Positions 1,413 to 44,200 of a stretch of 50,683 nt of DNA are shown in pieces. The stretch is taken from NCBI GenBank assembly GCA_905331295.1, contig CAJNYD010000218.1:1-50683 (forward strand), in the 5' to 3' direction. Source of the stretch: Rotaria socialis (taxonomy: Eukaryota). The position numbers and the translations under genes were made by a program. How positions within the stretch are numbered: position 1 is the stretch's first letter; the number at the start of each line of letters is the position of its first letter. Under the pieces are notes generated by a model, which had not been told where the DNA came from, did no database searches, and saw nothing but the letters and a program-made list of their open reading frames with translations.

Positions 1413-2320
1413 GTGAGTATTCGAAACAGTATAAGGCACGTTTTTCTACTTTTTACTACTTTTTTACTCCATTAAAGATGGCTTCAATTTTTTCCAATTT
1501 ACTCATACATCTATATTTATGTGTCAGAGTTTACATTCACTGCGATATTTTTTTACCGTTTCTTCTTTTGTAATTAGACATAGTCGAGATTGCACCAATG
1601 AAACCTATTAAAAATGAAACACATTTCCTCGTAACATTTCATTAAATAGAAAATATACGTCAGACTCAATCTTTACTGGATATAATAGTTTTATCATTTC
1701 ATTTTGATACTAATTTGTTAAGTTCGTAAATTAAATTGCAATCAATGCTGATTGCAATTGATTCTAATGAAAAATCAATTTCATTAAAATTTTATTGAGA
1801 CAAGCAGACTACTTAAATTCACCTTCAACGTCATTTGTGGAAAGACGATTACAAGATTTTGACCGGAAAACGGGATATCTGAATTTTAGTAGAGAAGATC
1901 TTCATATATCAAGGTCTGATCCTATTATGTGTTTATTGGTTGACATACAATACCTCTTCCTAGATATCATATATCGGCACAGTCAGAAGTATTTTTCTAG
2001 CATATTATTAATGGAAGCTCATTCGTGAAACTAGTTATATTAGACTAAACAACATTTCAGACATTTTAGAAAAATTGCCTGGAAGCAGTGTGATCGAGAT
2101 CCAATCGATTCAAGACGACTATACTGTGAGATCTTAACATCTGAATCTCCAAATATCAGTATTATCTATCCGCATCAAACTGAAAAAACAATAAGCTGCC
2201 GAAAAATAGATTTGAATGTCGAACCACATTTTCAGAAAACGTCGCACTTTTACTGTAGTGTGTATCTTCAATCATCTCTATTGTACGAAATATTCTTTAT
2301 TGTTATACTGTTGTTTTCAG
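1413..2320 (+). other. Putative 5'-UTR intron of the SIR2-NACHT gene
   Basis: Consensus donor CAG|GTGAGT at 1413. Pyrimidine-rich acceptor TTGTTTTCAG ending at 2320, 32 nt before the ATG at 2353. Pairing of this donor and acceptor is inferred. Confidence 0.5.
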
Positions 2321-2352: not shown

Positions 2353-5300
2353 ATGGCTTCTGAAATTCAAAACGTTAAAAATGCCGTAGCTTTAAATAAT
2401 GCACTGATATTTATCGGTACAGGTGTATCCAGTTATACAGCAAACCACGAACAAAATTTTTCTCATTGGAAAGGATTATTACAACATGGTCTTCAACGAT
2501 GTCATCAATCAGGATTGATCAGTGACAAAGACTTTGAAGAATTCAATAGCACATTTCAGAGTAATACCGCAGAAGCTGATGACTACGTACATGTTGCCGA
2601 CCAAATAAAATGTTGCTTCGAAAAGGAAAGTGGCGCTGCAAAAGTTGATATTTACAAATTATGGTTAACGGAAACATTAGGAAATTTGGTCGTTAAAGAT
2701 TCGGAACTGATAAAATCTGTAGGAGAATTGGAATGCCCTATTATAACAACTAACTATGACTGCCTGCTAGAAGATATACTTGATAGAAAACCGCTAACTT
2801 GGAGTAAATATTGCATAGCAGACATTGACAATTCATTAAAGGATCTAAAAAATTACATTCTTCATGTACATGGATATTTTCGAGAGCCAGATACTGTAAT
2901 TTTTAGTAGTGATGATTACACTCGAATTCATGAAGAGCAATTTGACCAATCAAACTTGGGATCACTTATGAAAAGAAAAACTTTATTATTTATTGGATTT
3001 GAGACCGGATTGTCAGATCCACATTTTTCGAATTTATTAAAATGGATATTCAGCGTGACCGGTAGACGATCATTGCCAATGTATAAACTTGTTACGTCAA
3101 ATACAACTAAAGGATTTAATCAAACATCAGATATGCTATTATTGGAGAATATGAAAGAACTTCAATATGGTAACACTCCAAAAGATTTATTAGAATTCAT
3201 AAAAAATCTCAAATCATTTAAACCGTTGATACGCGAAAGTTTATCTCTGGCAGACAGACAAGAAAATATTCGCCAAAAATATTTGAACTATCTTATTCAC
3301 GAATATGGCCACGTGTCTATTTTAGGATATTCGAATAGTAATATCAGTTTATCATTGCAAAGCGTATATGTTGAATTGAAATTCGATCCAACACATCCGT
3401 CCATTAAAGCGATGAAAACAGTAGAAATTAATGAGCAATTCAAGCGTAAACTGTTATCTCACGATTTTTTCGATGAAAATGAAATGCGAAAACTAACTCG
3501 AGCTATTATGGAAAGAAATGAATACAATTCTGCAAGTATTTACAAAGACTTTATGATTGATCAATGGCTAAATGTTTTGTTGAGTAACGAAAAAATATTT
3601 AACAAAAACGAAGCAACTTCTATCAAAGACAAGGTGAAACAATTGAAGAAAAGTATTCTAGAGAAAAATTGTCTTAAAGAAGCAAAACAATATCAAATCC
3701 AGCAGGCATACAATTTATTTAAGCATTTTATAATTCTAGGTCATCCAGGTTCAGGTAAAACTACTCTATCAAAATGGTTAGTAACCAACATGGCGAAGGA
3801 GAGCTTACAGGAGGAAAATACGTTGTTTGACGGTAGTTTTTATATTAAGGAGAAAATCCCGATTCTTATTCCAATTTGGAAATATGTTGATCAATTGAAA
3901 GAAAATCAAAAGGAACAAAAAAAAACTTTGCTGCAGTTTATCTATGAAAATCCAACTTTCAATTCAATATTTTTCAATGATGAAGAGCGAAACGGACTGT
4001 CATCTTTCATCATGAAATCGTTAATACAGGGAAATGTTCTAATTATTTTCGAAGGATTGGATGAAGTTCCTGCTCATGCAGATCGATCTGAATTAATGAA
4101 AGAAATCAATACATTGTTAGAACGAGGAATTGATTATGACGTAACAAATAATAAACTTACGTATTCAATTTATGAAGATAAGGAAATCAATAATACAAAA
4201 GATCCTACGATTGGAAATCGATTTATTGTAACAAGTCGTATTGAAGGGAATTATTTTGAAGAAATTAATTTTTATGTTCCAAGATTAACTATTGAAGATA
4301 TGTCGAACGATGCTCTGAAATTATTTTGCAGTTCATATATGGAATGTATCAAAGATATTTCTATTAAAACAGGAAGACGTGTCAAAGAATACGAAACTAA
4401 TCGATTATATAATAATATTACGAAAAACAAAGATATTTTTCAATTAGCAATCAATCCGCAATTAGCGAGTGTAATTGTTGCAGTGTATTATCAGTATGAA
4501 GGTAAACTGCCAGAGAAAAGAATTGATCTATACGAAATAGCGATTGGACAAATGATAGAACGATTAGTCACTTCTGATATTAATGCTTCTACACATCATG
4601 TAAGTCGAAAACTTGGATTGAATGCTAATTTTTTATGGTCAATAATGCAAGAGGTAGCTGATTATTTGCATAGTAAAGTTGAAGGCCTATCGGAAAATGT
4701 GCTAAAAGAAATAATAAGAAAATGCTTGAGAGATTATCAATCATCGAGTGATCTTACAATAGATATTGATGATTCAATCTCGAAACTTGTGGATATGTTT
4801 AAATATCAAGCAGGTTTGCTTAATGAATTTGGTCATGATAGCTTTCGATTTATACATCGTACATTTCAAGAGTATCTTGCAGCTAAAAATATTGTTTATT
4901 GCTATGGAATTCCACGATCTGCAGATACGATTTATGAAAGTATTAAAACCAAAATTGATACTCCCAATTGGAGAGTTCCTCTCAGCATGACATTTGGAAT
5001 ATTAAGTAAATTCAGTGAATTATTTAATAGTATCATCGCAAGATTGCTAAAAAATGAAGAAGCTCCGTATAATCTACAATCTTGTTCAGTGCTAGTACCA
5101 TTTTTTATTATTGATTCATTGAATGATATGTATTTTTCATCGAACGAAACAGAACACGAACTGATTCGAAAATTAGCCGATATGCTATTGTTTGACTATA
5201 AAAATATGTCCGGTTTTTCGCGATTAAAAGAACATCAAGAATTAATTCATTCCTATTTCTTGAAATTGAAAATCAAATATGTTCATATATTAGAAAAATG

Positions 5301-8300
5301 GTTCATTGAAAAGATACACAGCGAAGAAAGCATTTCCGCATGCGCCAACATTATTTATCAGCTCAAATGGTATAATTCAACATTTCATGAAATATTTTTA
5401 AAAAACTTGCATAATGATACTGATATTTGGAATTGGTCAATCGATTCAATTTTAAGATTTTATTCAAATGAAATTAAAAATCAAGTAGTTTCGGCGCAAT
5501 TGAAATTTAAAGATACGTTAAAGCAAAATCCAGAAATTATCAAACATATCATTGGGACTACTGATTGGTTATGCGTAATTACAGCTCTTTATGGAGGATA
5601 TAAAAATGATAATAGTCCATCAGCTATTTCAGAATATCATGAGCTCGCTCAATTTCTCGATTTATCTGACAAAGAGAGAGCACCATTTATACTTTACTAT
5701 CAAAATGTATGGGATAGAGATGATCCAGCATATGATATGGCCGTACGTGCCGATAAATTATATAATGAAAAACATTGGGATGACAAGCCAATATTTGACA
5801 CGAATGAAATCTATAAAGAATCATTTTTGACAAGCAAAATCATTGAATTTCTCCTTGAAGAAAAGTCTACTAGAGAATTAACCGAAGAATTGCGAAAGCA
5901 AATGCAAAGTCAAATATTGAACAATAGTGAAAAAACCGACGCATTAATTGCTTTAGTCGCTCTCGGGGAATTAGATTTTGTAAATAGTTTTATTAACGAA
6001 GGTGAAGAATTAATTATTAGAAGCTTCAGGAACAGAATACAACAATTAATTTATACTTTAAAAGATCCAATTGCTAGATGCTCATCACATATTGCGAAAT
6101 ATTTACTAGCAAAGCGTTCATTGAAGCATAATCTCAATTTTTCTGATTATTGCAAAATATATTTATCTTTAATAGCCAACAGCGGAGGATTACCAGTTGA
6201 TACAATAGCTTTAGCCGAAGCTGTGGATAATGTGGAAAACAAATACGATCTCTATGCAGAATATTTTGCCTATCAATTCGCTGGTGCTACCCGTGATAAA
6301 CGATATTCAATTGCAGTGCTTTCAGATGTATTTAAAGTGTCCGGTAAAACTGATCAAATTGTAAAACCATTTTTAAAAATTAATGGCGCAGTTCAGATGC
6401 ATAGGCCGATTCGAGCATACCCATGGGCTACCGATATATTTGTTTTTAAATCAAATGATGATGATAGTGATATTCCAATAGCATTTTTCAATTGCTTAGA
6501 AAACATCAATACAAATATCGTATTTGTAATAGAGGTCATTAGTCACATCTTCTTCAAAGAAGGATATTTCAAACGAAACCCTGAATTAGTTCCATTAGCT
6601 ATATTATTAGAATTTGGAATAATGTCTAAAGACTTAGATAGGTCTAAGACTTACAAGAATTTACTACCGGAATTTATTGATGTACCAAATATTAAAGAAT
6701 TTTTATTGGAAAAAATTCAATCAATGTGCAATCCTTACTATAAATCTAGAGCATTATATCAATTAGCTGAATTTTATGATGAAAGAAGTTATGGCTTATT
6801 AAATGAATCTTTTGCATTGACAAAAAATATTTCCGAGGCAATTTTAAAATTTCAAGTTTTGGAAAAGATTTTTAGCATTGCTCACTATAAGGAACCAGAG
6901 CACAAATCATTCATTGAACAAGTAACCGATGAATTAGTCATAACATTTAGTCATATCGAAAGTTTCTATAACCGAATTATCGCATCAGTAAGATTATCAT
7001 TTTATGGATCAGGAGAATTTCGAAAAAAGTACTTGACGATTGCTATAGAAACACTGATTCAAATGGATGAAGATGATGAGAAAATCAAATTGATTATTAA
7101 CTTAAAACCATTGTTTAGTATTTATGATGATCTTCAAAGCAAACTGAATGGAATTATAGGAGCTCTTAGAAATAAAACGCACAATTATTTTATCAATTCT
7201 TACTATGGACGAGTATTATTTAACGAAAAACTGTATGCTGATACTACGAAAGTAAGTTTAGATACAAATAAAAATTCTAATGACGAAATCGTCGATACTC
7301 AAACATCTACTGAACTGGAAGGTTTATTTTTACTGTTTGCACAATTGAATGACACAAAATTATTAATTCATAAAACCGAGAATATAGACCAATTGTGGAT
7401 CGATCTTTTGAAAGACGGTGATAATCAATCTAATATTGAAAAGATCTTAGAGATTGGTTTGCACAATGAAATATTTTTGACAGCACAAGTCGCAATTATT
7501 ATCGATGAGTTAATACGAAAAGAAAAGGCAGATACTATTTCAATTCTTTTTCCATATATTATAAAACCATCCAACGAAGTATTACCCATTGTTCAGAGAT
7601 GGTTTACTGATTATGAAAACAACCAAATCAAACAGCTGGCAGCTCTTTTATTGGCAGAAGCAAAACACATTTTTGAAACAGCCATTGATACAATTGTTGA
7701 GCTATTAAAAGGTGATAATGATCAAATGAGATATAGAGCTCAGCGAATCATTCAACATCCAGAACGAGACGTTGAAGTGCCCAGTAAGAGAATATCTATA
7801 ATAGGAGAAAAAACCTTAATGAAAATTCTCGAAAAAGCATCATCAAAAGAGCAAGTTCTACAAGTTCGAACTTATTTTGGTAGCTTCTTCTACGACTTGC
7901 TATGGGATGATCCTTTAGTTTTTCGGAATTTATTGGAAAAAGTAAATCAATGGAACATGGGAAACTATAACAGAGAAAGAAGAATCCGGCTTCTCTGTAG
8001 AATTCACTTTATAAATCATCATACTTGGAATATAGTAATGAGAACATTAGAATCATCAATGGATGCATCGCATATAGAAGACCTACTTTGTTCAACAATG
8101 TTTTTAACACAATATGATACATTTACACCAGAAAATTGGATAGAATTTGCAAGAATATTATCCGTAACAGATACAAGTCAATTTAGGGATCAATTATTAT
8201 TCGTACACACAGATCTAGACAGAATTGAGTTTATAATCGATAATATTTGTGCATTAACAAATACTTACGATGAAACATATATTGAAATTCTTGAGTCAAA

Positions 8301-9132
8301 ATTAATTAGCGAAATATCTCTCAAAATGGAAAATCTCCCACAAAGTAGTTATAATCAAATAAAACATATAGGCACTTGTAACTATTATGTCTCACGTGAT
8401 CTGAATGAAAGAGTATTAAATGTATTAGGTACTGTTTCAATAAGCATTGTCCTAATGGAAAATTTAATTAAATGGTTAATACAAAAAATGACCAGTTTTA
8501 AAATTTTTGATAATAATAGAATAGAATCGGTTTTGTGTGAAAGTTTATTATCGTTGGTTGCTGCCTGTGTTCAAAAGGACGATTATTTATATCGAAAAGT
8601 AACAAATTCTAGAAATTTTAACAAAGTTCGAATGATTCAACTGTTGGAAAAAATGCTTAATCATCATCCATGTTTTCCGGCTAGAGGTAGCGCTTTTATA
8701 TTACTTTCAGCGATGAATCAATCTGATCACAAAGTAATCCTAAATGCCATGAACACATTACTTGACGAAAATCTTGTGAAAGGATATTCTATCAAAGGAA
8801 TCCCTCTAGTACAATCGTCACCCAATAAATTTGTTGATGATCTATTGGAATATTTAAACAATGAAAGTGCCATAAAAACTTATGAAGTATTAAAAATATT
8901 GACAGAATTTGGTTTAAATGAAAAAATGGATACACATGGAAAATCAAAAATCATAAATTGTTTAGCGAATGAAATTTCACAAATAAAATCAAAGAAACCT
9001 GTTAATTATTTCTATACAGATATAAAAATTCCTTTTACAACAACACTAGAAAATGAATTATATAAAGCTTGGATTAAAATACAAGGACTTTCTGGCAAAA
9101 CTCAATATTCTATTAAACTTGAAGAATCATAA
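2353..9132 (+). CDS. SIR2-like (SIR2_2/SIRim-type) domain + NACHT STAND NTPase + long alpha-helical C-terminal region; NLR-like protein, 2259 aa, no intron in CDS
   Basis: Single 6.8-kb ORF. SIR2 motifs: [21 protein letters not shown] (~2746-2760), LHVHG (~2863-2874), LLFIGF..LSDPHF. NACHT motifs: Walker [10 protein letters not shown] (~3739-3765), Walker [39 protein letters not shown]. Confidence 0.92.
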
Positions 9133-11975: not shown

Positions 11976-13285
11976 ACGGGTGCGGCAGGATAAATGGCGG
12001 TCTCAGTATTTCGCCGATATCTCCCTTAATCTTAGCCCGAGTTGGCTCCCGTTTTTTTCAAAAGAATCGTCTTTCAAAGTTCTACAAAACAATACTATTT
12101 TTATTAACGCAAATAACTTCCATCATTTTGGTAAAGACGATACAATCGATTGGCCCAACACGCACAACTTTCAAAAACAACAGATTCAGAAATTTTTTTA
12201 ACCGACAATTTTAATTCCTTAATGAGTGTTGTTTTTGAGTAGACTTTGTTCCAATTGATGTTGTTGACCAGCTGATCCCATATTGAGTAGTCCAGTGGGT
12301 TTAAATCTGGACTATTTGGTGGCCATCTGTCTTTCTCAATAAATGTTGGAAAATTGTCTCGACACCATTTTTGTGATAAATGATGCGAGTGAGGCTTGGC
12401 GCCATCTTGTTGAAAGACCCAGTCGCTGCCGAAAAATTGATTCCCATATTTTAAAGCAACAGGAAGCACTTTTTCGATATAAACAGTGTGATCGACTGTT
12501 TCTTCATCCAAGATTACCAAGGGTGTGAGACCCTTGGAACAGGCACCGAGCCAAACCATTACTTTTTGTGGGAATTTTCGTTTCTGCTGAGTGCCACCAT
12601 TTTTATCGGCATCAGCACGATCTACTGCCCACACTCGATCATTTTGGGTATTATAAACACCGTCAATGTCGAACATCTTTTCATCCGAAAAGAGGATTTT
12701 CAAAGTGTCTTCTTTTCGGAAATTTGTTCGAACCCAATTTGCAAATTGTTTCCGTTTGAGCTTTTGATCATCGGAAAGCAATGGTTCGATTACTTTTTTT
12801 TAGGGATATAACCCTAAATCGCTTTTCATTATTCGCCGAACACTTCTTTCGGACATGTCAAGCTCCATTGGTATTTTTCGAGCTGACACCTTTTTCTTTC
12901 GGCGTAACCGGTTCTTTACCTTTTGAATGTTCTCCCTTGTTCGAACCAAACGAGGGCCACCTGGTGGTTTTGATAATGTGATAGTTCCCGACCTCCGGAT
13001 CATTTGACACCACCTTTCGATTGTTCTTAAACCGAGTCCACCGTTTAAATCATGATAAATTTGTTTCGGAGTATCACCTTTTTGGTACTTTGAAAGTACC
13101 ACCTTTTGAAGGTCTTTACTTTTCATCTTCGGAAAACCTGTATTTACTTTGGATATTTAAATGAAATATGGGGATTTGTAGAGCGATAGACGGCGCACAT
13201 TTCAACAAAAAAAGGGACGAATTGGATGGAAAATAAGGAAGATGTCGCGAAAACACTAGACCGCCATTTATCCTGCCGCACCCGT
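11976..13285 (-). mobile_element. Tc1/mariner DNA transposon, DD37D (maT-type), full length
   Basis: Perfect 28-bp TIRs ACGGGTGCGGCAGGATAAATGGCGGTCT (11976-12003 and 13258-13285). TA target duplications at 11974-75 and 13286-87. Internal transposase. Confidence 0.95.
12104..13126 (-). pseudogene. DD37D transposase interrupted by one in-frame TAA at 12800-12802
   Basis: ORFs 12800-13126 (HTH region) and 12104-12781 are in the same frame: LGLYP*KKVIEPLLSD. Catalytic residues FSDEK, QQDGAKPH and SPDLNPLDY, with 37 residues between the second and third D. Confidence 0.9.
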
Positions 13286-13661
13286 TACATTGTAATACGC
13301 TCATGTTCAAAACCATATGCACATGCACTCACACCACACAATTTATCCACACCTGACATTTATAGCACATATACAATTCAGTTTCCATAAGTTCTTATCT
13401 TTTACTGAAAGACATTATCTGTATAATGTTATTTCATTTTTGACAGGATAGGTTATCTTTATCTTGTAATTTCAAGTGGTTAAAAAAAGTAACTTGAATT
13501 AAGATTCATTATTGCAATGCTTTTCTCAGAAATATTCTGTATAAGGAAAAAGCCAACATAAATTTCATGAAGATCAAGATAAGAATGAGCATATGCTTAT
13601 ATGTAAGGTGACATTGTCTTGTAAAAGGACAGAGTAACGTAGAGAAAATATTATTCTCACA

Positions 13662-16600
13662 ATGATTGCTACTATACTCATCGCATTTTGTTTGGTTGCT
13701 GTATCAGCCACCGAAGAAGGTTTGTTGATTAAACATGAAATTCAACAAGCAATTAAGTTTCAATAATTGCAATTCTTATTCATCCCGATTTTAGTAATTA
13801 ACAGACCACAAGGCGTGTGCCTGATCTTCGGCGACCCACATCTTCGTACATTTCCTCCACGACCTCTAGGCTATAGACCACAACTTTGGTGCAAAGAGGC
13901 TGGCAACTATGTCATCATTGAAAATCAATATGTTAAAGGCGTCATTACAGTAACAGACACGCCATGGATAACTGAACGGGTAATATTTTTTGTAGATAGT
14001 GTATTAATATATGCGCAACTGTTTTCAAACTTTTTCAGTTTCAATTTACTTTTTTCAATGGCAGCAAACTTCTATGTACTATCAATGATAATAATAAGCA
14101 GTGTCCTGGCCAAAATGGTATAAAATACTTAATTTTCAAATGGTGTCTGAATAACGCTTACTGTTTATTTAGACGTCGAAGTGAGTGGAAATCCCAGATA
14201 CATCATTATTATGCACAAAGATCTCGGTTTCAGGATTGAGATAAATCAGATTGGCGACGTATACCTCTTTTGCGATCTTTTCATGAAATTTAGTTTATCA
14301 CCTTGTTTTGTGTTTCAGACTCAATACGAGAATATCAACATTCACATGGATTTTGACTTGATCGGTGTATCACACGGTCTTTGCATAAGTGCCCCTCGCG
14401 GTTGTGTTTACGAGGCTGGAAGACGTCATCATGAACTGGCCATTGTGAATCCTAGTCTTAGGCAAAGATTGACAAGTGAACTTGCTGTACCGATTTGTGA
14501 AGAATATCTCGAAAGATCTATCCAAACAGCGTCCATGCTCCAACTGCCAGCCAGTCCGGATATGGTTGAAAACATGCGTATAGCATGCGAAAATGATGTT
14601 CAAACAACTGGTGATCCAAAGGTAACACATCTTCAGTAGAAATTTATGGCCATGAAGTTGAAGAACTATTTCAATTATTTTTAAGGCAGGTGCAGGCATC
14701 ATAGGAGTACTTGTATCGGAGGGTATGAGCGGTTTAGTAGTAACAAATGCTCAATTTCTTAACATGTCGATGCACAATGCCATTATTGTCGAGGAAGCAT
14801 TGAATAATGCAACTGTACATATCGATGCCATTATTGCTCAGGCCATCACAGCTCAACCATCTATACAAGAGAGTACTGCATACGAACTATTTCCAGGAGC
14901 ATCCACTTCTATTTCTACTAATCCAATATCTACATCAACTCTAAGTAGTGCAGATTCACCATGGAAAATGTTTTAAATCATTCTATTTCTTTCATCTTTT
15001 CAGTTGCAACACCTGACGTGAAAAGTTTACAACTATGTCATGTGTGGGGTGATCCGCATATTCTTCAATTTTCTCAAAGGCCAACAACAACACGCTATCA
15101 ATATTGGTGCAAGGATGTTGGCAAACAACAATTACTGAAAAATAAATATGTTAGTGCTACAATAACAGTTCATACGCAAAACTGGATTATTGATGAGGTA
15201 AATAACGATCGAGAGAGATTTCTTACTGATCAAACTTTTCAAAATAAATTCAGTTTAAGTTCACATTTTTTGATGACGATGGAACCATTCTTTGCTCCAT
15301 GGATAATAGCCAACAAAGTTGCAATAGTTCGAGTAAGTCTATATAGTGTGGATATGTGATATATCTGCATCTTTCCGATTAATTCGCGACTACTTCCTTC
15401 TGTCAACATACGTTTTTCGATGATGTTATGATTTGCAATGAAGAATGAAAATATGCAGATTTCCAAAAATTCCACATAAAAATTGAAAACTTCTATTACA
15501 ACTTTCGAAATAACTAGCTTAGCCTCATAATTTCTTCTCTACAACCACATTCAATAACGAATCATAGTAACATTACAGTATTTCAGCCTAAATAACTCAG
15601 AGGAATTCACCAAGTAACTCGAGATCTGATGAACTGATTATAGTGATCAGCTTCTTGAATATGCAGAACATCGCATTTGTCTAATCAACATTTTTTAGAA
15701 TTCCATAGGCACACTGTATAAAAATACCATATCAAGTCATAGTTCTCAAAAAGTAAACGGCTCGATGCGAAATAACACTTCGTCAAGCTTGCGCTGAGAT
15801 ATTTTTGTTTCTATTTATTAAGTTGTTTGAATAGATCGAGCCCACTCTAGAATAGGTCATACTGGACCAACTTCCAAAGATCAAAATGCTTAGAAAACCT
15901 TCATGTACAACTGAAGTAGTTCTATCAGATTTCACATTTCAATACTATAAAAATCTCGTAAAATAGATTTATCGACCTATTCATATTTTGACATTTTACG
16001 GTTTGAAGCAGGCGACATCGGCCACATTTTAAGATTATCGTTATTGAAAACATGATGATAATTCAATTTCATCATTCTTTCCAATCACTTGAAATTGTGA
16101 TGGGCTGTTACGTTTCCCAGATCTTGAGTGTGTGGGTGTGGATGACTGTGGATGCAACTCATATTTTATCTCACACCCGACACCCTCAAATTCACACCCA
16201 TATCCGAGTCTCTTCGAGTCCTGACTAAGGCCTAAAAACGATCCAATAGGTAATTCACAGCAGGAGCTATTTCTTTGTTTACGAAAATATTCAACAACTT
16301 ATAATAATTCTTTTACAACAAAAGGAATCGGTATTACACGACCAACACTGGAACAAATGGACATTATCTATTATACAACAGGCATTCGAATATCTGTCCA
16401 TCAGCTTTATCTGGTAAATGTAATATTATTCTTAAGCATTATCTTTACCTAATTTTATGTTGAAGGCTCCTTGGTATGACATCAGTATTTGGATGCCAGC
16501 CGAATTCACAGCACAGTCGTACGGACTATGCATATCTCCCTCACCAACTTGTGAATGGGAAGCGGGGATTGAACAATTGCAGCGACGTTCGCTGCCCAGA

Positions 16601-17947
16601 ATACCGACAAGCAATCGATCCAAGATTGTACAGAAACTGGCCGATAAATTGTGTGAAGAATACATGATGGCTGGCAAGAGCACTATTATTCAACTAGGCC
16701 TAACCCCTAATAGTGTTATTGAAAATGCTGCAAAACTTGCATGTATCGACGATTTAAAATCATCCGGGATAGAAACTGTAAGACAAATAGGAGACTCAAT
16801 ACCATATTTTGAATCTTTTCATTGCTAATAGTGGTGTACTTAGATGTTAGTATTTAGGTATCCCTAATTATTTCACGTTTGTTTTTAAATGTATATTCGG
16901 TCCACCAAACACTTGAAAAAATTAAGTGTACGTAACTTCATTTTCTGGTCATAGAGAAGATACTGCAACTAATCAAAGAAAGAGTGTTTATATATAGTTT
17001 GGGGTTCCACCAGGGAGTTGCTGATTGCAGAATTAAGTAATTTCGAGATGTATGACTAGTTTTCCAACGAGCATACTAGATTCTGTTACTGTGACCTAAC
17101 AATTTTTTCTGCGCTCACAAAGCTATCCCTTTAGTAATGAAGATTAATGATTCAATTATAATTCTCGACATAGGCCACATTCCAAAAACAAGAAAGATTT
17201 AGATCATAATAATTACGAACTTCCTTTTGGAAAATTGATCTTTTTCATCTTAATAAGCTCTGAAGTCTAGCACAATCAGTGCTTCTTTATGTGAGCATTA
17301 TGGACAGTAAGGCTCCTAAAAATTGTTCCTCAAGGTGTTATTTAATGTTGTTAGCACAGGATCATATGTATTTTTTACAGAAGGAACTACCGAATAACAA
17401 ATTAGAGAACTGAGTAGTAGTTTTATCGAGTTACTTCTGGATGTGACTCCATGTTAGGGTCTGACATCTTTATCTATATGTTGGAGGTCAACATTCTCTT
17501 GTTTGTTTGTTTTCTCTCGTTCTTCTCCCTTTTTGTTTATTGTTATGAAACAGTTATGTCTTATACGTAATAAAGAAAGCCCTGTGAACTCAGGACATAA
17601 CACTCCAGCTTGTAGTTTTATCTTCACTTTAGTTTGGTTCTGGTATCATGCATCTTATGATGTCAGAAGCGATCAGTGGAGCACGTCCTGACACATATGC
17701 TCAGCTGGACGTTTTAATAACAAATGGAGCAACAGCGTTATCTCCGACAATAGCAAATGTTTCACAGCAAATTGACAATTTGATTACTGAAACGCTGGAT
17801 ACGACTGCCCAACCATCTACCACTATTAACATAGTGACAGAAGATTCCAATCCAACCACGCCTCCGTTTTCGAGTGCAAGTGGCGATTTTCTGCATATTG
17901 GATATTTCTATTTATTTTTGATCATTCATTTGCTCAATATTTTCTAA
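13662..17947 (+). CDS. Secreted, probably GPI-anchored protein with two tandem RGM-like GDPH/VWD modules (multi-exon)
   Basis: Signal-peptide exon MIATILIAFCLVAVSATEE (13662-13719). Module 1: CLIFGDPHLRTF...WCKEAG...GLCIS...ICEEY...ACENDV. Ser/Thr linker. Module 2: CHVWGDPHILQF...WCKDVG...GLCIS...LCEEY...ACIDDL. Thr/Pro-rich stalk and hydrophobic C-terminus (..SSASGDFLHIGYFYLFLIIHLLNIF). GT-AG introns, including two long ones (~15333-16320 and ~16777-17631). Confidence 0.78.
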
Positions 17948-21404: not shown

Positions 21405-23555
21405 TAGCATACTAATTTTTTTCTGTGGCTTGTTGCTCTCGCTTAAGCCATGTTTTTATTTGTTTTCGGCGAGTTTCTCCTTTTGTATAATGTTATTATC
21501 AGTAAGTGTATGGGTATGGGTGTGGGTGTAAGAGGAGAGGTGAGGGTGGTTTGTCAGGAAAGAGATGAAGGTGGAGTGATTTCTCTTCTACTGATCATTC
21601 AGATCCCGAATTATATCCTCACACCCTATAGTGTCTGGCCACCAGATTGATAATTAACTCGATGTAATCAAGGTATCTTTGAAAGTATTCTTTATATTGA
21701 GGTTTAGCCTTTTGGGGTGTAGATATGTGTGTAGGTCTCTGGGTATGAATGAATAAACGAAAAACACCCACACTCACCCACCCTCAAGATTTGTCTGTAG
21801 TTCGTGCTTTTCACAATCATTTTTGAAAAAATCTCTACCTGAAATAAAGATGAAAATTTGCGACGTAGAAATTTTATTACACAAGAAACAAGTCAACGAT
21901 GCGTTAGAAGTATGTACATTTGGATGCTTTGTCTGAACTCAATGTTTAAGTAATATATTTTGCTAGATATTGCTTGAAATTATTGATGAGGGTGCGTGTG
22001 GGTGTGGGTGTGAATTCCACATCCACACCTAAAAAATCCGAAGAAATTAATAAACAAATAGTTTTTGACAATGATCTCAGTCTTATATAGAAAAGCATGT
22101 TCAATCAACTCTATATGTGGTTTAATTATTTGACCAAGTGATAACGCCAAAAATCATTTTTAGATTGATAACCTCGATTTTGAACAAAGCGCTTAATACA
22201 ATAAAACCTGATAAGTTCAGAGGAAACGTTTTTTTTTCCCGAGAAATTGGATACGCAATTGAAAGGGATGCGTATTAATAAGTGAATACTTTTTTAAATT
22301 AAGTATTGTGATATTATTTTACCAATTTTAAACTTAAAATTTAGAAAGAAATCGACACTATGTTCCTTAATCATGGCATTGAATGATTTGACTTTTTTCG
22401 TTTCCTTAAATACTGTAATTTTCTTTTTCCTTCGTTCTATTATGGGGATTTACCGGTGTTAAAGCCTGATCATTTTTCTTGATAACGTTCGTAATTGCTG
22501 TTCAAACTATGCTGATAAATGTCATTCCAAGCTACCCAAGTCAAAGAAGTATGGTAGTCTCTGTTAAATTAGACTCGAGTAGTGCCTCACGCCTCATATT
22601 AGAGGGTGGGCTGTGAATTTGGGGTGAAATTATGTATATTCATTTTATCGGTACCCACAACCACAAAATGTTTCATCAATGAATCAATAACACAATTAAT
22701 AAGATTAGAAGACAGAATAAGGTATTTGAATTTTTACTCTTAGTTTGATAATAAACGAATATGATTTAATTATATTTAGATTGAAAATTGAAAATGAACA
22801 AAACATTGTGATTGATTTTTGGAAAAACAAACTCTCTGGTCTAATCGTCATTGTAGCTCGTACATGACTCCATCGATATGGACATAAATACAAACAGAAT
22901 TATTTAAAAAATATTATCAATTAGTTTATTCGATGATAATTCAATTGAAAATATAATAAAATATATCGTTTTGTCGAAATCAAAAAAGTCCTTTACTGAA
23001 AGCATATTTCGATGGAACAAATTTTCTTGGTGATACATTCGTTTAATTATTTATTTTTCGATTAGACTCATCTCGCATAATTAGACTAGACAAGTACTGA
23101 GCAACTAAATCGATTGGTTATAATTACGAAAAAATATTTTCATATACGAAACTGAAATACATCAAAAATAATACCCGTTTCATCGTCTCGGTTGTCACTT
23201 TTTCGGGGCTGGGTGTAACCGTAGGGAAGACTACAACGCTCACATTATAATCTGCACCCCCTCACACATTCAGGTTGTGGGTATGGGTCTTGAATGTATG
23301 AAAGTCACATACAGTCACAGACCAATTCTTAAAATCTTTAATTGTTATAAATATTTATTTGATAAATTTTGACTAGTCACTTCAATTTCTATTACATATA
23401 GGCTAAAAATAGAAAAATGTCTATTTCACCATTGAAGTATATCATAATAAGTTTTTATCCATGTTAGATACCTAAATTCAGATTACGAATTGATGTTTCT
23501 TTTACGAAACTGTATTAATTGATTATAGGAAAAATAGAAAAAGAAAGAGCAATTA

Positions 23556-25554
23556 TTAAAATGATGTTAAATATATAATAAAAATGGAAATACATATAGA
23601 AAATGCATATTTTATATTCATTGCTGTATTTGTTATTGTTTCATCTGTTTTTTTTATTCCCCAAAGATTATCAGTTCCGAAATATTGCATAGCTGCTTGT
23701 TTACTTTTTATTGTTGTACCAGAAAAATCAATTTGACTTATTTTATTTAGACATGAACGATCTGGTTCAAATTTTGGTGATATGACGAATGTTGCCGCTA
23801 AATTCCAGCCACAATTTCCTTCTTCGCCTGTCATTGGTGCTGCATCTACATTTTTTATTATTTAAATTTTTAAAAATTACTTAGAAAGAAAATTTACTTG
23901 TTGCTGTATGTCCTGTACGTGGCATTTCAATATAGGTAAAGTTTGAATTAATTAATGAATATTGTTTAGAAAAATGTCGGGCAATTGGCACTGGTAATGC
24001 TTGGTCCATATCACCTTGATTCATTCGATAGAATTCTTAAAATTTAGCTTTAAATATAATTAAAAACCTACCATGTAATAATAAAACTGGTAATTTAGTC
24101 ATTTTGGTTGGATATTTTCTATAGTATTGATCAGTCGGATATCCTAATATTTGATATTGTTGAATCGGACAATAAACATCAGGCATTACATGTGTTGAAG
24201 CAAATGTATTCATTGATGCTCCTTTTAAATAATCACATGATGGATTTGTTTCTTCGGGATTGAAAGGAGACCACAATTCAGCAAAATTATTATTTAGTTC
24301 AACTAAAATTGAATATCCTACTGCTCCATCTTCATTGGGTGGTTGCGTTACATTTAAAAAATGTCCTAGAACATTTTGATCATCCAAATTACATCGATTA
24401 ATTCGATAGATCAACGCTGGAAAAAGTTGCATCATATTTGGATAAAATATATACGACATCTAAAGAAATAGATTTTTCTAAACGTTTCTTTTTGCTGTTC
24501 TTTTACTTTTTTTGCAATATCTTCAGTAGTTGTATGTAATAAAGAAAGACAAGATGAATTCGTTTGAAAATCTTCTTGCATTTTATAAGTATAGAGTGCG
24601 CGCATTGGATTTTTATCTTCGAAATATTGGGCACATCCTTCTTCATCTTGCGCACAACGTGTAAATAAGTCTAAAAACATGTAATTTAAATATTTATCCC
24701 CATGAACTAATCGTGTTATATCAGTGGGTAATACAGAATCAAGTATAACTCCGTCGACTTGTTCGTTATCTTGAGTCACATGAAGATATCTTTGTAGAAG
24801 ATAAGTTCCTTGACTTGATCCCATTAAAATAACACGTTGATTTGAGTTTAAATTTTGACGATTACTACCCATAATTACTTTTAAAATATATTCTAAATCA
24901 CGTGCTGTATTTGTGTATGTATTTTGTTTTAAACGATATTCATTATCTCTTATATACGGTAAACAAGCTGTGAAATTTTTAACAATCGATGTTGGACATT
25001 CGATTAAACTGCTTTGGCCAACACCACGTTTATCTGTCACATATATTGATACTGAACCATTCAATGCACTAACAACACCAACAGCTTCTAATTCTAAACT
25101 AGTCACTGGAATACCACCGCCACCTATCAAAGAAAAATTATTTATATATATATAATTTTATTTAATATACCTGGTATTCTCCATAAATGATGAGATTGAT
25201 TTTGATATCCCAATAGAAAATAACGTTTAACAAATACTTGTATAGTTTGTGTACATGTCGTGAAATTCGTTGTATTCCAATTGATAGGAACATTTAAAAA
25301 CATACATTGCGCATAAATATTATTTATTGTTACAGGCTAGAAAAGTATTGAAATAGTTTGCAAATATATATATATGAATATATTAAATAAAATACTCCAT
25401 CTGAAAGAACAGAACAACTAGACCAATTTGCTTCAACAATCGGCCAAGAATTTAAAGGTAAACAGCTTTGGCCATTGGCAACATTTGAAAATATTTCAAG
25501 TAAAAGTATAATACTCGATAGAAACCATTTTGTAGAATACCAACGCAGCAGCAT
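23556..25554 (-). CDS. Secreted alpha/beta-hydrolase, TAP-like/S33 serine peptidase type, with hydrophobic C-terminus (multi-exon)
   Basis: Signal-like N-terminus. AQCMFLNVPINW, IGGGGIP, DKRGVGQS, nucleophile GSSQG, GVILDSV, PVLLLHG(DMD) acid, MPRTGHT His. Exons joined by short GT-AG introns. Confidence 0.82.
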
Positions 25555-26509
25555 TGTCAATTGATAATTACTTGTATAATTTTCTTCTTAAATATATAAC
25601 TTGTTTTTTACTAATAGATGTAAAATAATCTTTTATTTGTCAAAAATAGTTTGCGTTGCGATGAATGATTCATAAAAACAGATCCTTGTGTAAATATTAT
25701 TATTGGCGCATATACTTTGATAACGTATACGTCAACATAACATATAGAGTTACCATTACTTCTTTTTTAATAGATTTTAAACGTACACCTTTATCGCTAG
25801 TCATCGAGGCATTAGTGATTAACTAGAGTACGTTTGTTTTTTTAACTCATATTTTTCTGTTCGATTCTTAAGAAACAGTTCACAACTTCATAACTATTCT
25901 GAACATTTTATGATAAAAGGTGACTAAGATTACTATAAATATAATCTAATCGCAAATTGAATATGAAAATTAAATATCAATAGTTCTTCAATAGTTCGAG
26001 CGATGGACTATCTATGTTGTATGACTTTATCTGAATAGATTGCTACTCATCCCAAGGTAACACCGGATCGCCCTATGCGATATGAATAGTAAAATCTACT
26101 GCAATAGAAATCGAGATCTTAACTAATCAAGTCTGTTTTTCACCATCATTTTAAAATATGTAACAATTGTTTTTTAGTCATGTTTATTAAAAGGAGTTCA
26201 ACGTTATTTCTTACATCCTAAAAGCATAGTTGTGCTAGATCACGCGATACCGAAAATTTCTTCATGTTGTTCGATTTTCCCGATCAACTAAACCAATTAA
26301 CAAAAAATTCTAGTGATGATAATACACCACGAGGAGCATTTTCAATCGAATAAACAAGTATATTGATATTAAAAATAGTGGTAGTTTAAGTTTTGGACAA
26401 ACAGGAAGATATTATTATTCTAGTAAATGAACATGATTTTCTATGTCATTTCAATTATATCCCCTCGAGTTGGTGGGGAATTTGATTTTGCGGCAAAATC
26501 AAAATGCTT

Positions 26510-39700: not shown

Positions 39701-40807
39701 TATTTCCATTATTCTCTTTTTCGCAAATGTCATTTATAAATTTTTCTAATGACACAGTACTTGGTCGATCGATATTACCAATTGCAGAAGTATTATTGGC
39801 ATCATCGATAGCACTTATACTCTTATTGCCAACTGTAAATAATATCTCAGCATCCTCAGTGATCGACCATTTGAGTGGAAATGTTTGACTATTTGTCGGT
39901 ATAAGCCATATATCAAATAGACCTCGCATATAATCAAAATACCAAGTATCAAATTCATCTTCCAAAGTGAGAGGTTCGGCTAGCTGTAATTTTGTAAGAG
40001 AATAACCCGTATTAACTACACCTCGAGTGCTTAATTGCGTACGAATAAATACATCTAAAACACAACCTTGAGTAAATCGTGTCGATGAGGGAACTTTGTT
40101 TATTGCAGAACGAGATGCATTACCTCGACTAAAAAGCATAAAAAATAAATATTGTACTGGAAAATCATTTCAAAAGTATTGTTACTATGCGAGAAACTTT
40201 TATAAATTAACTTCTTGAAAAAAATCAAAAGAAAAATAGCGGCAAATCACCGATAGATTTATCTTTCTCACAACTTTCTTTCATCTTGTAAACAGGACGA
40301 ATTCCAGACTGGTTAATTCACACAATCAAAACTTTTGTATGTTTTTACTTACTTAGCATGATCATTTTGCTTTTTGATCAATGATGTGAATAAAAATTCT
40401 TCAATAAATTGTTCAACTGATTTCCGATCCTGTTTTACATGAATATAACATGTAATTTGACGTACTAATTCCGTTTCAATCGTTTGTTTTATTTGAACAT
40501 TCGATTGCGGGATAATATTCATTGGATTTGGCAATAATGATTTCATGAAGTATATTTCAACCAGTTTCACCTTTACATCAAAATCATCTTCACCACTTAA
40601 ACAAATTTTCAAATGTTGTAAGTTAATTGGATCATCAAACAAGCGTAGCTGTTGAGCAATATTTTTTAGAGTTTGTTCATTCGGAGCATCATTAAGATTA
40701 GATATGAAATTATTCGAACGGATTTGTGCAAGGTTTGCATCGTTGATAGAATTTATAGAAGCTGTAACTGAAAGAAAATCAAACACAGAAAGTTGCATCG
40801 AAGCCAT
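36796..40807 (-). CDS. Large AAA+ ATPase (NSF/CDC48-like active domain plus degenerate second domain) with SAM-like helical bundle, coiled coil and C-terminal Cys/His cluster (multi-exon)
   Basis: Walker A YGPPG|TGKS split by an intron at ~38735-38790. Walker B VSIDEIDSL. SRH ATNRIHMMDEAFLRR. NFSGA. Second-domain-like SMIVFDLDSLIG. C-terminal CVKC...CVYHDG...FICC...GCKKAKH. Confidence 0.85.
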
Positions 40808-41236
40808 TTTGAATGAAATATGTCAAGGGATTGTCGAATATTACTTAAATAGACGCAAGGATATTCGTCGATCGTTTCTTCCTTTGCCAACTATATATTT
40901 CATAACTATGGAACAAGTTGGATAGTTCCATTCTTTAGTACAAAAGGTAGGCAATGCTTTTTTTCTTGTTACATTCTTATCAGTACTGGATTTTTAGCAC
41001 CGTCTGCACATACACATTCGTCTGGTTTTCTCCATTGTGTAATAATATGAAACTTATCACATGATAAATATGACGTGTTTTTTACCTGCATAAATATAAA
41101 GATACTCGATTTGTTCTTACTAATGTTATATAGGTGGATTTTTCTTTTTTTATGACTAAAGTCAAATATAATTTTCTCGATATAAAATAAAGCAGTTAAA
41201 GTGTTAGATTCTTATTTTTCGGAAACAATCTTAGTG

Positions 41237-44200
41237 ATGAATCACAATTATCAATATAATAACAACATAGATCACTTAGCTCAATCTAATAAAGAACGAC
41301 AGCAAAGAGGTCAATTGTTACAAGTCGAAAGTGAGGTACGTATTATAGAAAACTCAATACAAAATGCTGAGGAAGAACTAAAAACAATCACCAAAGAACG
41401 TATTATGTTACAAGCTCAGCAAAGCAAACATGAACAAGAATTATCTGCATATAATATTCAACTTACTCAAATGACAAATGAAATGCAACGAATCCACAAT
41501 GAATTACACAAGTTACAAGAAGAACAAAAAAATCTTATTATGGAGAGAGATCGAATACAAACGGAACTTAATCGCCAACAAACAGTTCTTCGTTCGGAAG
41601 ATAGAAAATTGCAAGAGCTTCAGAATAAAATGAGAAATCTAGAAAATGAAAAACATCAAATTGAACAGCATCGAATCGAATTAACAGAAGCCTTACGACA
41701 GAGTGAAGCTAATCGGCAAGATCTTGAACGACAAATGGCTGCTGCTGATGTTGAAATTAGTGCACTCGTGAGACAAATTGAACAACTTCGCCAACAAATT
41801 CAAATAGTTGAACAGGCAGTTCAGGAGCTAAACGATCAAATTCAAGAAAATGTCGATCAAATAAATGAACTTGAAGAGAAAATTGCTGAACATAAAAAAA
41901 CAATACAAGAAATCGATATGGAAAAAATCCGAATTGAAGCAGAAATCGAACATATTCAAGATAGAATTTCTAGAATTCAAATGATCATTGATCTGAAAAA
42001 CGATCAAGAAAAAGATCTCTCTCAATATCAAGAGAAACGTGAACAAGAACGAGAAGAAGCATCGAAAACATTGAAAAATGCTCAAACAAGATGTGATGAA
42101 TTGAAAGAAGCAATCAATTCATTAGAAAGAGACTTGAAAACGATGAGAGAACAACTAGCGAAACTTAACACCGAACTGCTCCAACTAGAAGACAAAAAGC
42201 GTCAGGCAACAAACGAAGAGATTTTAGCTAGGTATGGATTTTTTCTTAGTCTTAAGATGAATATAAATCCAACAAAAAACATTGAGCGTACAGATTAAAT
42301 GCACCTTTCATTACTCCTATCGTAAATCATCAATAGTTTTTCACTTTTGTGAAGATAAAAAAGACTTTCTGATATTTATTAACAGAGAAGCAGTTGCTTT
42401 GGCTCAACAAGAATGTGAAAAACTTAAAGCAGAAACTATTCAGATAGAAGCAACATTACAAGAAAAACAGCAAGAAAATAATCATGCGAAAACTAAAATG
42501 ACAGAACTTGAAAATGCACTAAAAACAAAACAAGCAGAATTGACGAAAATCGTCGAAAAAGTCAATCAACTCGATCAAAATTTAAAAAATTGTGAACGAA
42601 AGCTAGAAGAAGCCATTAGGCTACGAGATCAACATAAAGAGACATTGCGTCGAGAAGAAGAAAACGAGCGGAAAGCACAAAATGCAGTTCAAGAACAAGA
42701 TATGATAGTAAAAGATGCTCAAAATAAACTCAATCAATCTGAATTAGACGAAAGTGAAGCAAAATCTGCTTATGATGAAGCAAAGAGATTAGAAGAAGAA
42801 GCTAATAGAGAATTGCAGGAAGCAAAAAATGAGATGAACCAACTTGAAAGTGCCCTGCGGCTTGCACAAGCGGCTCTGGTCATTGCATCCGTAGGATCGA
42901 TGTTATTGATCGGAGCCGTAGGTGCGGCTGAGTACGCTCTTAATTCCTTTCGATCAACGTTGGCGAATGCTGAACGGACGGCTGCGTCACGAAAGGAAGA
43001 ACGTGTGCAGCGATACAATGCTCACCAAACAGCAGTTCAGAAGAAAGCAGCAGCACATACGCATTTACAAGCAGAACAACTAAAACTTGAAACACGACGT
43101 CGAGAATTACATAATCAAACTGAAACAAAAAATCGTGCTAAATATGAACTTGATCAACAAGAAAATGTGGTGAGCGCTCTTACAGATGATCGAAATAAGC
43201 TTGACGATGAACTCACAGATGCTAAACGTCAACAATTAACCAAAGAAAATGAAATTAAAGATCAAGAAAACGAAATTTCAAATCAAAAAACAATCGTCGA
43301 GCAATTGGATAAAGAGCTCACTGTAATCAATACTGAAAAAAACGATGTTGAAAAAAGAACCATTGCAGCTACTCAAGTCCAAAACGCTGCAGTTGAACGT
43401 CATCGGAACGCTGAAGAAGTATTCACCGAAGTGACACATACATTAAAAAATAAAGGTACTGAGCAACAGCTGACACTTGAGAAAATTGATCAGAAGAACA
43501 TGGAACTCGAAGCAAAAAATACTGAAGTTCGTGAAAAAGAAGCGGAAGTTATCAATGCACAAAATAAAGTACGAGCGATCGACGAAGATTTACAAATGCT
43601 TAAGAAAACTAAAGCCGAGTTACAAAAAGACAGGAACGATCAACAGCGTGCTATTCAAATAGAACAGCAAAAACGAGATGAAAATAAAGAAAAACGTCGT
43701 GAAATCCAAAAGCAATTAAAAGAAATTACAAATGAAAAAGAGACATTGATAAAAAAGCAGACCGATATCAAACGACAATTGAAAACAAAAAATACTGAAT
43801 TACTCAACAAAGCAAAGCAAGTGCAGAATATCGAAGCACAAGTGAGTTTTCATAATGATATTTGCATTCTATGGAGTTTCATATCAAAGATTTGAGAGTG
43901 AAGTCCTGTGTAACTATTTTCCTTTGTCCAAGCTTTCTTGTCATTCCGTTATTGCGAGTGAACAAAGTAACGTGAATTTAGTCTCACTTCATCGAACCAA
44001 AAATTGAAGTTGTGTTGAAACAGAGAATGTAACTACCTCATATCTTGACGAGCCAAAATAAATACATATGATGTACTTCCTGAGAAAATTCCCATTAGAT
44101 CTTCTTCATAAAACGGTGTCAGTATTTTGTTAGAGATTTGAATCAGATATTTTCCGTGTGTGTGTGTGTAGGAGTTCAATTGCTTCGGTGCCACAAATTA

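Follow-up and report, generated by a model that had tools for sequence, protein, structure and literature searches.

An apparently eroding NAD site in a SIR2-NACHT-solenoid gene family of bdelloid rotifers, probably of bacterial origin

Proteins that join an N-terminal SIRim domain to a NACHT or NB-ARC module and C-terminal repeats have already been described in fungi and animals, and clade A of the SIRims is reported to contain both fungal and animal SIRim-NACHT proteins (10.1101/2024.09.18.613514). FAM118A and FAM118B are each reported to be weak alone and active together, with intact sites needed in both partners (PMC12700824). Bacterial Avs5 is reported to be a NADase upon filament formation, its NOD being described as inactive, yet ATP binding is needed (PMC11897194). 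Effector swapping among bacterial NACHT proteins is reported as a layout typical of conflict systems (10.1101/2022.07.19.500537). Here we analyse a SIR2-NACHT-repeat gene in a 50,683-nucleotide window (the whole stretch of DNA analysed) from the bdelloid Rotaria socialis. Because fungal and animal SIRims of this layout have already been published, the architecture is known, and a preliminary description of this DNA overstated its novelty. Our preferred but still tentative reading is that bdelloids, early in their history, likely took over a complete SIR2-NACHT-solenoid protein from a bacterium, that it serves as an NLR-like defence switch, and that its SIR2 output is likely damped in the protein encoded here, P0001 (Table 1).

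Table 1. Coordinates of the SIR2-NACHT gene and its parts within the window
Feature	Position	Strand	Basis or remark
Complete single-exon CDS, SIR2_2 - NACHT - helical solenoid	2353..9132	+	P0001, 2259 aa, ATG to TAA
Candidate 5'-UTR intron, 908 bp	1413..2320	+	Splice motifs only
SIRim/SIR2_2 domain, aa 1-290	2353..3222	+	Pfam, FAM118B alignment, fold
Glu217 (GAG), G-x-G loop following the fifth strand	3001..3003	+	Replaces a near-invariant Gly
Pre-NACHT linker, aa 291-445, FISNA-like segment and helical insert	3223..3687	+	Motif YL..LI..Y..V.I.G.....L..VYV.L
NACHT module, aa 446 to about 980	3688..5292	+	End at ~980 set by NLRP3 alignment
HEAT/ARM-like alpha-solenoid, about 1280 aa (~1300), predicted sensor	5293..9129	+	AlphaFold2, profile matches

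Gene structure and domain architecture

The 6.8-kb SIR2-NACHT frame is intact, as first described: it is a single open frame with zero N, and the runner-up among stop-to-stop frames in the window reaches 542 aa. It had also been called intronless among intron-bearing genes. This stands for the coding part, and the neighbours do carry short GT-AG introns (Argonaute at 30456-34694, read directly, and AAA, coiled-coil and M54 genes), but the gene itself may have a 5'-UTR intron. The candidate donor, AG/GTGAGT at 1411-1418, is one of 2 such motifs in the window with both strands counted, and the candidate acceptor, ttgttttcag, ends at 2320 with the ATG 32 bases further on.

The N-terminal domain matches Pfam SIR2_2 (PF13289; E 1.4e-17, 64.6 bits against a cut-off of 24.5), and its model has the ThsA/DSR2/FAM118-type fold (Z 19-21.5, rmsd 3-4 A, ~250-275 residues), with Z 21.5 to FAM118B and 21.2 to ThsA. 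Seven strands of 3 or more residues are counted in the predicted model of aa 1-290, where the SIRim criterion is seven or more, and the SIRim motifs G.G, N.D and HG are present (G22/G24, N134/D136 and H173/G174), while the second G-x-G loop deviates (E217). A search for the zinc-binding Cys tetrad found no C-x(1-4)-C pair within aa 1-290, in line with the earlier claim that the domain lacks Zn-ribbon cysteine pairs.

The linker had been likened to the segment preceding bacterial NACHT domains, and its motif has clear counterparts ahead of NACHT in proteins of Cyanomargarita, Phormidium, Anabaena, Saprospiraceae and Minicystis; model residues from ~304 align to NLRP3 from residue 134. The NACHT module that follows scores slightly below the Pfam cut-off (E 6.8e-6, 26.5 bits against 26.7), but its predicted fold matches the NLRP3 and NOD2 modules (Z about 16, ~400 residues), with further matches to those of NLRC4 and Avs5, and we retain the original assignment. 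Its motifs are Walker A (GHPGSGKT, 463-470), sensor-1 R629, NPQ at 701-703 and winged-helix H835; G463-T470, R629, P702 and H835 are each found in 40/40 sequences of the family alignment, with H464 at 38/40. In the Walker B motif, IIFEGLDE, the first Asp of hhhhD[GAS]hDE is replaced by Glu567, a Glu shared by 34/34 family members and by the protein P0056, whereas 86/86 outside sequences have Asp.

The C-terminal part, originally described as a long helical region, is nearly all helix in the AlphaFold2 model of aa 1061-2259 (pLDDT 88.6, pTM 0.88). Its fold matches are to generic HEAT/TOG structures only (TM 0.09-0.17, best Z 10.7) and point to no ligand. The domain order of P0001 is effector-NACHT-repeat. 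No death-fold effector or LRR was matched by Pfam in P0001, and the C-terminal model holds no repeating strand sheet.

The NAD site in P0001 and across the bdelloid family

The NAD-site motifs had been described as intact. TTNYD (132-136) and HVHG (171-174) are so, and P0001 retains G22-x-G24, W39, N134, H173, D222 and Y272, the last five of which align with FAM118B W65, N163, H206, D255 and Y307, reported as site residues (PMC12700824). Position 217 departs from this picture: Glu stands where 105/108 non-bdelloid relatives, and likewise FAM118B, have Gly. Glu217 is present in 12/12 full-length cluster members compared, and an acidic residue at this position is common to P0001 and its sister orthologs P0018 and P0019. 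The G-x-G loop has a phosphate-binding role in sirtuin structures. Glu217 is predicted to hamper NAD binding, and the NAD-cutting site is likely weakened in P0001 and most of its relatives.

Alignment of the bdelloid family indicates a NAD site that is eroding while the NACHT motifs stay invariant. Of four NAD-site residues that are otherwise near-invariant, one or more are lost in 27/34 family members, a set whose rows are kin to one another and include 15 metagenome proteins. G24 is retained in 18/33 family members versus 107/107 SIR2s outside, H173 in 17/34 versus 107/108 and G217 in 17/34 versus 105/108, the outside conservation being inflated because those 108 SIR2s were chosen by likeness to P0001; N134, D136, H171, G174 and G215 are each found in 34/34 of the family. 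SIR2 is also the least conserved region, with a mean identity of 0.49 versus 0.69 for NACHT. A 36-row tree, with the full site in its outgroup and earliest branches, shows 9 changes in the state of the catalytic His. In R. socialis, P0001 occurs alongside two full-site paralogs, P0024 and P0025, and full-site copies are also kept in R. sordida and Silwood2.

On the model of NLR, Avs5 and FAM118 biology, the solenoid would bind a cue of foreign origin or from damage, ATP binding and oligomerisation would fall to the NACHT module, and the SIR2 domains, once clustered, would cut NAD+. In the ancestral state, represented by P0056, the earliest branches and the two R. socialis paralogs, NAD+ would be drained. 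In P0001, Glu217 would weaken NAD binding, making the protein either a low-output receptor or a sensing or scaffolding partner of the intact-site paralogs, a partnership for which the FAM118 pair provides a precedent. In that published pair both sites must be intact, which differs from a pairing of a dead with a live site. The preliminary description thus holds as regards a bacterial-type tripartite STAND protein, but its statement that the protein depletes NAD+ is in doubt, because of G217E in P0001 and the loss of site residues in most family members.

It is possible, though unlikely, that P0001 is a fully active NAD+-depleting executioner like bacterial Avs5. The five site residues matching FAM118B, the 93% identity of the SIR2 domain between R. 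socialis and R. magnacalcarata, the activity of Avs5 on filament formation and a top Foldseek match of the N-terminal model to EfAvs5 (E 3.8e-9, with a TM of only 0.19) all speak for such activity, but Glu217 and the acidic residue of P0018 and P0019 speak against it, and the family-wide erosion argues that catalysis is often dispensable.

Less probable still is a role for the transferred STAND protein in non-immune signalling, for example in stress or desiccation, with the SIR2 domain serving for docking, as a nucleotide sensor or as a pseudo-enzyme. In its favour, Asp replaces G24 in each of the four named Adineta copies, and in three of them Tyr stands in for the catalytic His. The solenoid, moreover, is unlike an arms-race sensor: it is not the fastest-changing region (mean identity 0.54-0.56, against 0.49 for SIR2) and shows only 0-2 residue differences among four R. 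socialis sequences. Against this, R. socialis, R. sordida and Silwood2 still have copies with the full site, the bacterial relatives carry conflict-type effectors, and bdelloids are reported to employ foreign genes against pathogens (PMC11258130).

A bolder extension of the defence-switch reading, which we consider speculative and decidedly unlikely, is that bdelloids took a complete bacterial SIR2-NACHT receptor whose paralogs, with intact and blocked NAD sites, co-assemble as sensor and executor. If true, this would be an animal NLR with tunable NAD+ depletion as its direct output, and a case of a toxic bacterial effector tamed repeatedly after transfer.

Bacterial relatives and origin

The NACHT subfamily, linker and solenoid of P0001 are common to proteins of Cyanobacteriota, Bacteroidota, Actinomycetota, Planctomycetota and Chloroflexota, which points to a widespread bacterial chassis. 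Eight or more effector types are joined to it: N-termini among these NACHT-solenoid relatives include TIR, trypsin, caspase, CHAT, kinase, calcineurin-like, DUF4062 and SMEK. Bacterial proteins excluded from training of the solenoid profile (L031, L043, L041, L023, P0149, P0125 and P0147) are recovered by it with scores of 260-665 bits, and in Minicystis rosea a SIR2-NACHT ORF is followed by an overlapping ORF that matches the profile at 69.5 bits. Separate domain phylogenies had been proposed in the preliminary description. In two NACHT trees, composed of sequences other than canonical animal or fungal NLRs, the family (SH-aLRT 99) and the family plus P0056 (100) lie inside nested bacterial groups (99 and 99) that include two Actinomycetota genomes and one Saprospiraceae MAG. 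Bdelloids are the only eukaryotes in the SIR2 tree, which contains neither FAM118 nor fungal sequences. Profile scores place the domain in the FAM118-like subgroup, yet nearer its prokaryote-type members: non-bdelloid matches to the bdelloid-family SIR2 profile have a median of 161 and a top score of 194 bits, versus 91 for human FAM118B.

P0056 is 36% identical end to end and has the full NAD site. Among 29 matches it has no close relative except the bdelloid family; its own peptides found no relatives in GTDB contigs or viral contigs, and three samples of about 400 genomes gave distant matches only (2/400, 2/401 and 1/401). Its GARP/FYMINK ratio of 0.65, against 0.23-0.51, hints at a more GC-rich genome of origin. 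The neighbourhoods of seven bacterial homologues, counted without a background control, give weak support for defence islands, with one clear case (L043), and a plasmid search gave 9 distant SIR2 matches. The donor of the SIR2-NACHT gene was not found among the relatives and genomes searched. Atlas neighbours are bacterial SIR2, FAM118B and bacterial and rotifer NACHT-HEAT clusters, which agree with the assignments but are not evidence of transfer.

An old horizontal transfer from bacteria, with later copying within bdelloids, is likely because the NACHT-solenoid nests in an effector-swapping bacterial family and the SIR2 domain is nearer prokaryote-type SIRims than FAM118B. The suggestion that the gene was horizontally acquired and domesticated is accordingly borne out as the likely history by the NACHT trees, the bdelloid paralogs and host-like codon use. 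Under vertical descent the gene would represent rotifers in SIRim clade A (FAM118/SIRanc), an old opisthokont group of NLR-like proteins, and its bacterial look would date from a transfer more than 1 billion years ago. Clade A is reported to include fungal and animal SIRim-NACHT proteins, a profile gave 141 bits on FAM118B versus at most 58 on ThsA, DSR2 and KomC, and the eukaryote-labelled EukProt protein P0265 (Death-NACHT) shares this NACHT type and matches the solenoid weakly (155 bits), so the NACHT-solenoid chassis extends beyond bacteria and bdelloids. We nevertheless regard vertical descent as highly improbable: no named non-bdelloid eukaryote is among the close matches, although most of one 150-row listing has no names; the coding sequence is a single exon; and P0265 and a second eukaryote NACHT, P0264, are placed elsewhere, and a grouping of both with the family is rejected (p-AU 0.018, for a group named after the tree was seen and with long branches).

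The SIR2-NACHT ORF is a genuine part of the bdelloid genome and not contamination, given paralogs across Rotaria and Adineta and host-matching codon use. Homologues occur in five Rotaria and three Adineta taxa, one of them on an 18-Mb A. vaga record, and Didymodactylos has SIR2 fragments. The cluster of P0001 has 14 members in two Rotaria species, with cluster-mates of equal length in R. socialis and R. magnacalcarata, on contigs of up to 558 kb. GC3 is 0.24 versus 0.15-0.26 in host exons (n=7), with which codon use correlates at 0.85. The presence of bacterial DNA as a contaminant or through a chimeric join, to which the single exon and bacterial-type domains might point, is effectively refuted by these observations, and the earlier view of a true host gene holds.

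Comparison with described systems

Eukaryotic SIRim-NLR fusions have so far been predicted, and in the bdelloid family natural single-exon variants, some having the NAD site intact and others not, occur in host animals that are culturable and have described pathogens. NAD+ cleavage as an animal NLR's direct output, and the taming of a bacterial suicide effector after transfer, are therefore testable. A literature search outside subscription papers found none on a SIR2-NACHT family in rotifers. The main text of 10.1101/2024.09.18.613514 has no rotifer, though its Table S4 and figures may list one; NACHT, SIR2 and NLR are absent from the main text of PMC11258130, as are the family terms from 12 of its 16 supplement files; and no row fits the family among the ~6,800 genes listed in an A. 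vaga spaceflight table (PMC12220480), whose gene numbering does not correspond to the NCBI locus tag.

The clade A NLR-like proteins of Bonhomme et al. resemble P0001 in their N-terminal SIRim of the FAM118-like subgroup, central NACHT, C-terminal repeats and animal host, and there too function is only predicted. The sensor of P0001, however, is a HEAT-like solenoid common to a bacterial family and not ankyrin or TPR, the bdelloid family shows recurrent active-site loss, and the data favour a transfer that was separate and later. FAM118B/FAM118A (SIRanc; PDB 9r0p, 9r3e) is the best PDB match to the SIR2 domain by sequence and fold, sharing the five site residues and the absence of a zinc module, but identity is 22-24% in the structural alignment, below the FAM118-clade figure of 41%, and P0001 differs in its fusion to NACHT and solenoid and its Glu at the G-x-G Gly. 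Avs5 (SIR2-STAND; EfAvs5, PDB 9jap) has the same SIR2-NOD-sensor order and serves as a works-like model of an assembly-driven NADase; P0001 is far longer (2259 versus 869 aa), with a different STAND and sensor. A profile match with Avs5 spans only 28 residues (E 0.008), a PDB sequence search with P0001 returned no Avs5, and PADLOC gave no Avs family match, only two weak ones in the NACHT region (MkoA and mad8). Animal NLRs (NLRP3, NOD2 and NLRC4) share the NACHT fold (Z 15-16) at 12-16% identity, whereas P0001 has neither a death-fold effector nor an LRR. The effector-swapping, NLR-related NACHT proteins of bacteria (Kibby et al.) share the NACHT subfamily, linker and solenoid, whereas P0001 stands apart by its Walker B Glu and its place in an animal genome.

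Architecture and host residence of the gene

P0001, the SIR2-NACHT-solenoid protein under study, is encoded in the window by a single ORF (2353-9132, +; 2259 residues) in which Pfam recognizes SIR2_2 (E 1.4e-17) and, marginally, NACHT (E 6.8e-6). Monomer structure prediction, proposed in the preliminary description, was carried out with AlphaFold2 on residues 1-1100 (pLDDT 78.9) and 1061-2259 (pLDDT 88.6, pTM 0.88). The models predict an N-terminal SIRim fold (Z 21.5 to FAM118B, 21.2 to ThsA and 20 to DSR2), a central NLR-type NACHT (Z about 16 to NLRP3 and NOD2) and a long C-terminal HEAT-like solenoid whose structure matches are generic only. The SIR2 motifs, the absence of zinc cysteines from the SIR2 domain and the pre-NACHT linker were all found as originally described.

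The 13 named cluster-mates of P0001 are all from Rotaria socialis or R. magnacalcarata, on contigs of up to 558 kb, which places the window in a bdelloid rotifer, and the flanking host genes are intron-rich, as had been noted. The gene's GC (0.31) and GC3 (0.24) lie within the host-exon range, and its codon use correlates with that of the host at 0.85. With residues 1-900 as query, 74 matches were obtained, 43 of them at 38-100% identity, and those named represent five Rotaria and three Adineta taxa; Didymodactylos has related SIR2 fragments, and R. socialis carries at least three family copies at 60-63% identity. The family is real and bdelloid-wide. Cluster-mates, intron-rich neighbours, host-like GC and codon use, and bdelloid-wide homologs together exclude contaminant DNA in practice.

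Other features of the window
Feature	Coordinates	Strand	Basis
Argonaute gene, intron-rich, N-terminal repeat of about 18 residues	30456-34694	+	
AAA ATPase gene, long exons, C-terminal Cys/His motif	36796-40822	-	
Long coiled-coil gene, adjoining the AAA ATPase gene	41186-45826	+	
Tc1/mariner-type transposase, two frames, apparent terminal inverted repeats	12035-13270	-	DDE_3, E 1.5e-4
Intron-containing gene for a secreted protein, repeated GDPH motifs (VWD-like by eye)	13659-17947	+	
Alpha/beta hydrolase gene, with introns	23400-25600	-	
M54 peptidase gene, with introns	48173-49150	-	
Solo-LTR-like segment	19640-20190		by appearance
Degenerate-repeat-like segment	9850-10600		by appearance

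Origin of the NACHT-solenoid and of the SIR2 domain

Searched exhaustively, a set of 1.84 billion representatives yielded 7175 matches; among the best 150, identity falls to 25-35% outside the family, and many of these relatives align to NACHT and solenoid alike. A GTDB scan gave 338 relatives out of 604 pattern matches, of which 80 were kept, the long ones coming from Cytophagales, Cyanomargarita, Planctomycetota, Anaerolineaceae, two Actinomycetota, Saprospiraceae and another Bacteroidota genome. The solenoid profile scores bacterial NACHT-solenoid proteins absent from its training set at 260-665 bits, and the N-termini of the bacterial relatives include TIR, caspase, trypsin, CHAT, kinase, calcineurin-like, DUF4062 and SMEK domains.

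The bacterial loci L023, L025, L026, L031, L038, L041 and L043 and the proteins P0125 and P0129-P0156 form a widespread family of NACHT proteins of 2000-2600 residues that share one solenoid of ~1300 residues behind at least eight different N-terminal effectors. P0125 (front end NRPS-like by eye) and P0149 are 5000-residue fusions, and P0142 and P0149 combine TIR with an AAA-ATPase-like part. In Minicystis rosea (L030:9980-16442) a SIR2-NACHT ORF is overlapped by one in a different frame that matches the solenoid, and a second SIR2 gene comes next; this is possibly a split three-part gene. P0055, a member of P0001's own family, has exchanged SIR2 for an unrelated N-terminus of ~140 residues, which on visual inspection resembles the tail end of a caspase-type domain.

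In two NACHT trees (104 and 48 rows, picked by score with near-duplicates removed and no canonical animal or fungal NLR included), the family (SH-aLRT 99) has P0056, its nearest outgroup protein, as sister (100); the pair next joins four large proteins, one named Saprospiraceae (99), and then a group containing Actinomycetota proteins (99). Two other NACHTs labelled as eukaryotic, those of P0264 (Adineta ricciae) and P0265 (a Death-domain protein from EukProt), are placed apart, which suggests further transfers. A clade forcing both with the family is rejected (p-AU 0.018, 35 rows), a modest result given long branches and a group named post hoc. P0265 shares the bacterial type of NACHT and also matches the solenoid weakly; the chassis has thus either reached eukaryotes repeatedly or is older there than supposed here. 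P0264 represents a second bdelloid NACHT-HEAT type.

For the SIR2 domain, FAM118B was the sole match in a PDB sequence search with P0001, and a mixed SIR2 profile scores it at 141 bits versus at most 58 for ThsA, DSR2 and KomC; the domain therefore belongs to a FAM118-like subgroup. A family-only profile gives a median of 161 bits for 112 non-family SIR2s, chosen by likeness and where named from Planctomycetota and Minicystis, versus 91 for FAM118B. Separate trees of the two domains had been proposed: the NACHT nests in bacteria, and the SIR2 tree, which has no eukaryote comparators, joins the family with P0056. P0056, sister of the whole bdelloid family, is colinear with P0001 end to end (36% identity), has a full NAD site, lies on a 260-kb contig and has an amino-acid make-up of a more GC-rich type; of the proteins found, it is the likeliest to represent the donor lineage or a relative of the donor. 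Gene transfer is common in bdelloids. The horizontal acquisition claimed at the outset is likely, given the nesting of the NACHT-solenoid among bacterial proteins, and we consider it quite probable that the SIR2-NACHT-solenoid gene passed from bacteria to an early bdelloid.

Variation at the NAD site

P0001 residues W39, N134, H173, D222 and Y272 are the counterparts of FAM118B site residues. The preliminary description rightly called the TTNYD and HVHG motifs intact but missed an erosion of the NAD site. Glu217 of P0001 stands at a position that is Gly in FAM118B and in 105 of the 108 relatives compared from outside the family, after removal of six distant or duplicate rows. The two Gly loops of the domain presumably hold the NAD phosphates, as in sirtuin structures, and Glu217 is predicted to weaken NAD binding. 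Across 34 members of the family (19 of them named and bdelloid, P0001 among these, and 15 unnamed; six near-duplicate or outgroup rows removed from 40), the catalytic His is retained in 17 and replaced by Tyr (13), Phe (3) or Gln (1). G24 persists in 18/33 and G217 in 17/34, the substitutes being mostly Asp or Glu, and the complete set G24, W39, H173 and G217 occurs in only seven of the 34. N134, D136, H171, G174 and G215 are invariant, as are the NACHT motifs, whose single fixed oddity is Glu567 in place of the first Walker B Asp. The family tree has nine changes of His state, with the outgroup and first branches carrying the full site. As the NACHT motifs and these five SIR2 residues are invariant and other NAD-site residues vary, catalysis has likely been lost recurrently while fold and switch persist.

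Proposed mechanism and relation to known systems

The SIR2-NACHT-repeat layout is not new: fungal and animal SIRim-NACHT/NB-ARC-repeat proteins have been reported, with predicted immune roles, in a study whose main text, its tables aside, makes no mention of rotifers (10.1101/2024.09.18.613514). NACHT modules are described as having moved repeatedly to eukaryotes, with SIR2 among the bacterial effectors (10.1101/2022.07.19.500537). Our literature search found no paper on the bdelloid family. New and open to testing are the exchange of effectors on a bacterial chassis and the repeated loss of the NAD site.

Of seven bacterial homolog neighbourhoods, one (L043) is defence-island-like, the rest giving generic kinase/cyclase matches among 84 ORFs. 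The solenoid may act as sensor, the NACHT would bind ATP and assemble, and the SIR2 domains would come together as in Avs5, a SIR2-STAND precedent for such clustering (PMC11897194). In the ancestral state the receptor would have cleaved NAD+, an output likely damped in P0001, beside which the two full-site R. socialis paralogs (P0024 and P0025) could be executors. FAM118, defined as vertebrate-specific with an identity of at least 41%, offers a partial parallel: FAM118A and FAM118B are individually weak SIR2 paralogs that are active jointly, but both partners require intact sites, unlike a pairing of a full-site paralog with P0001 (PMC12700824).
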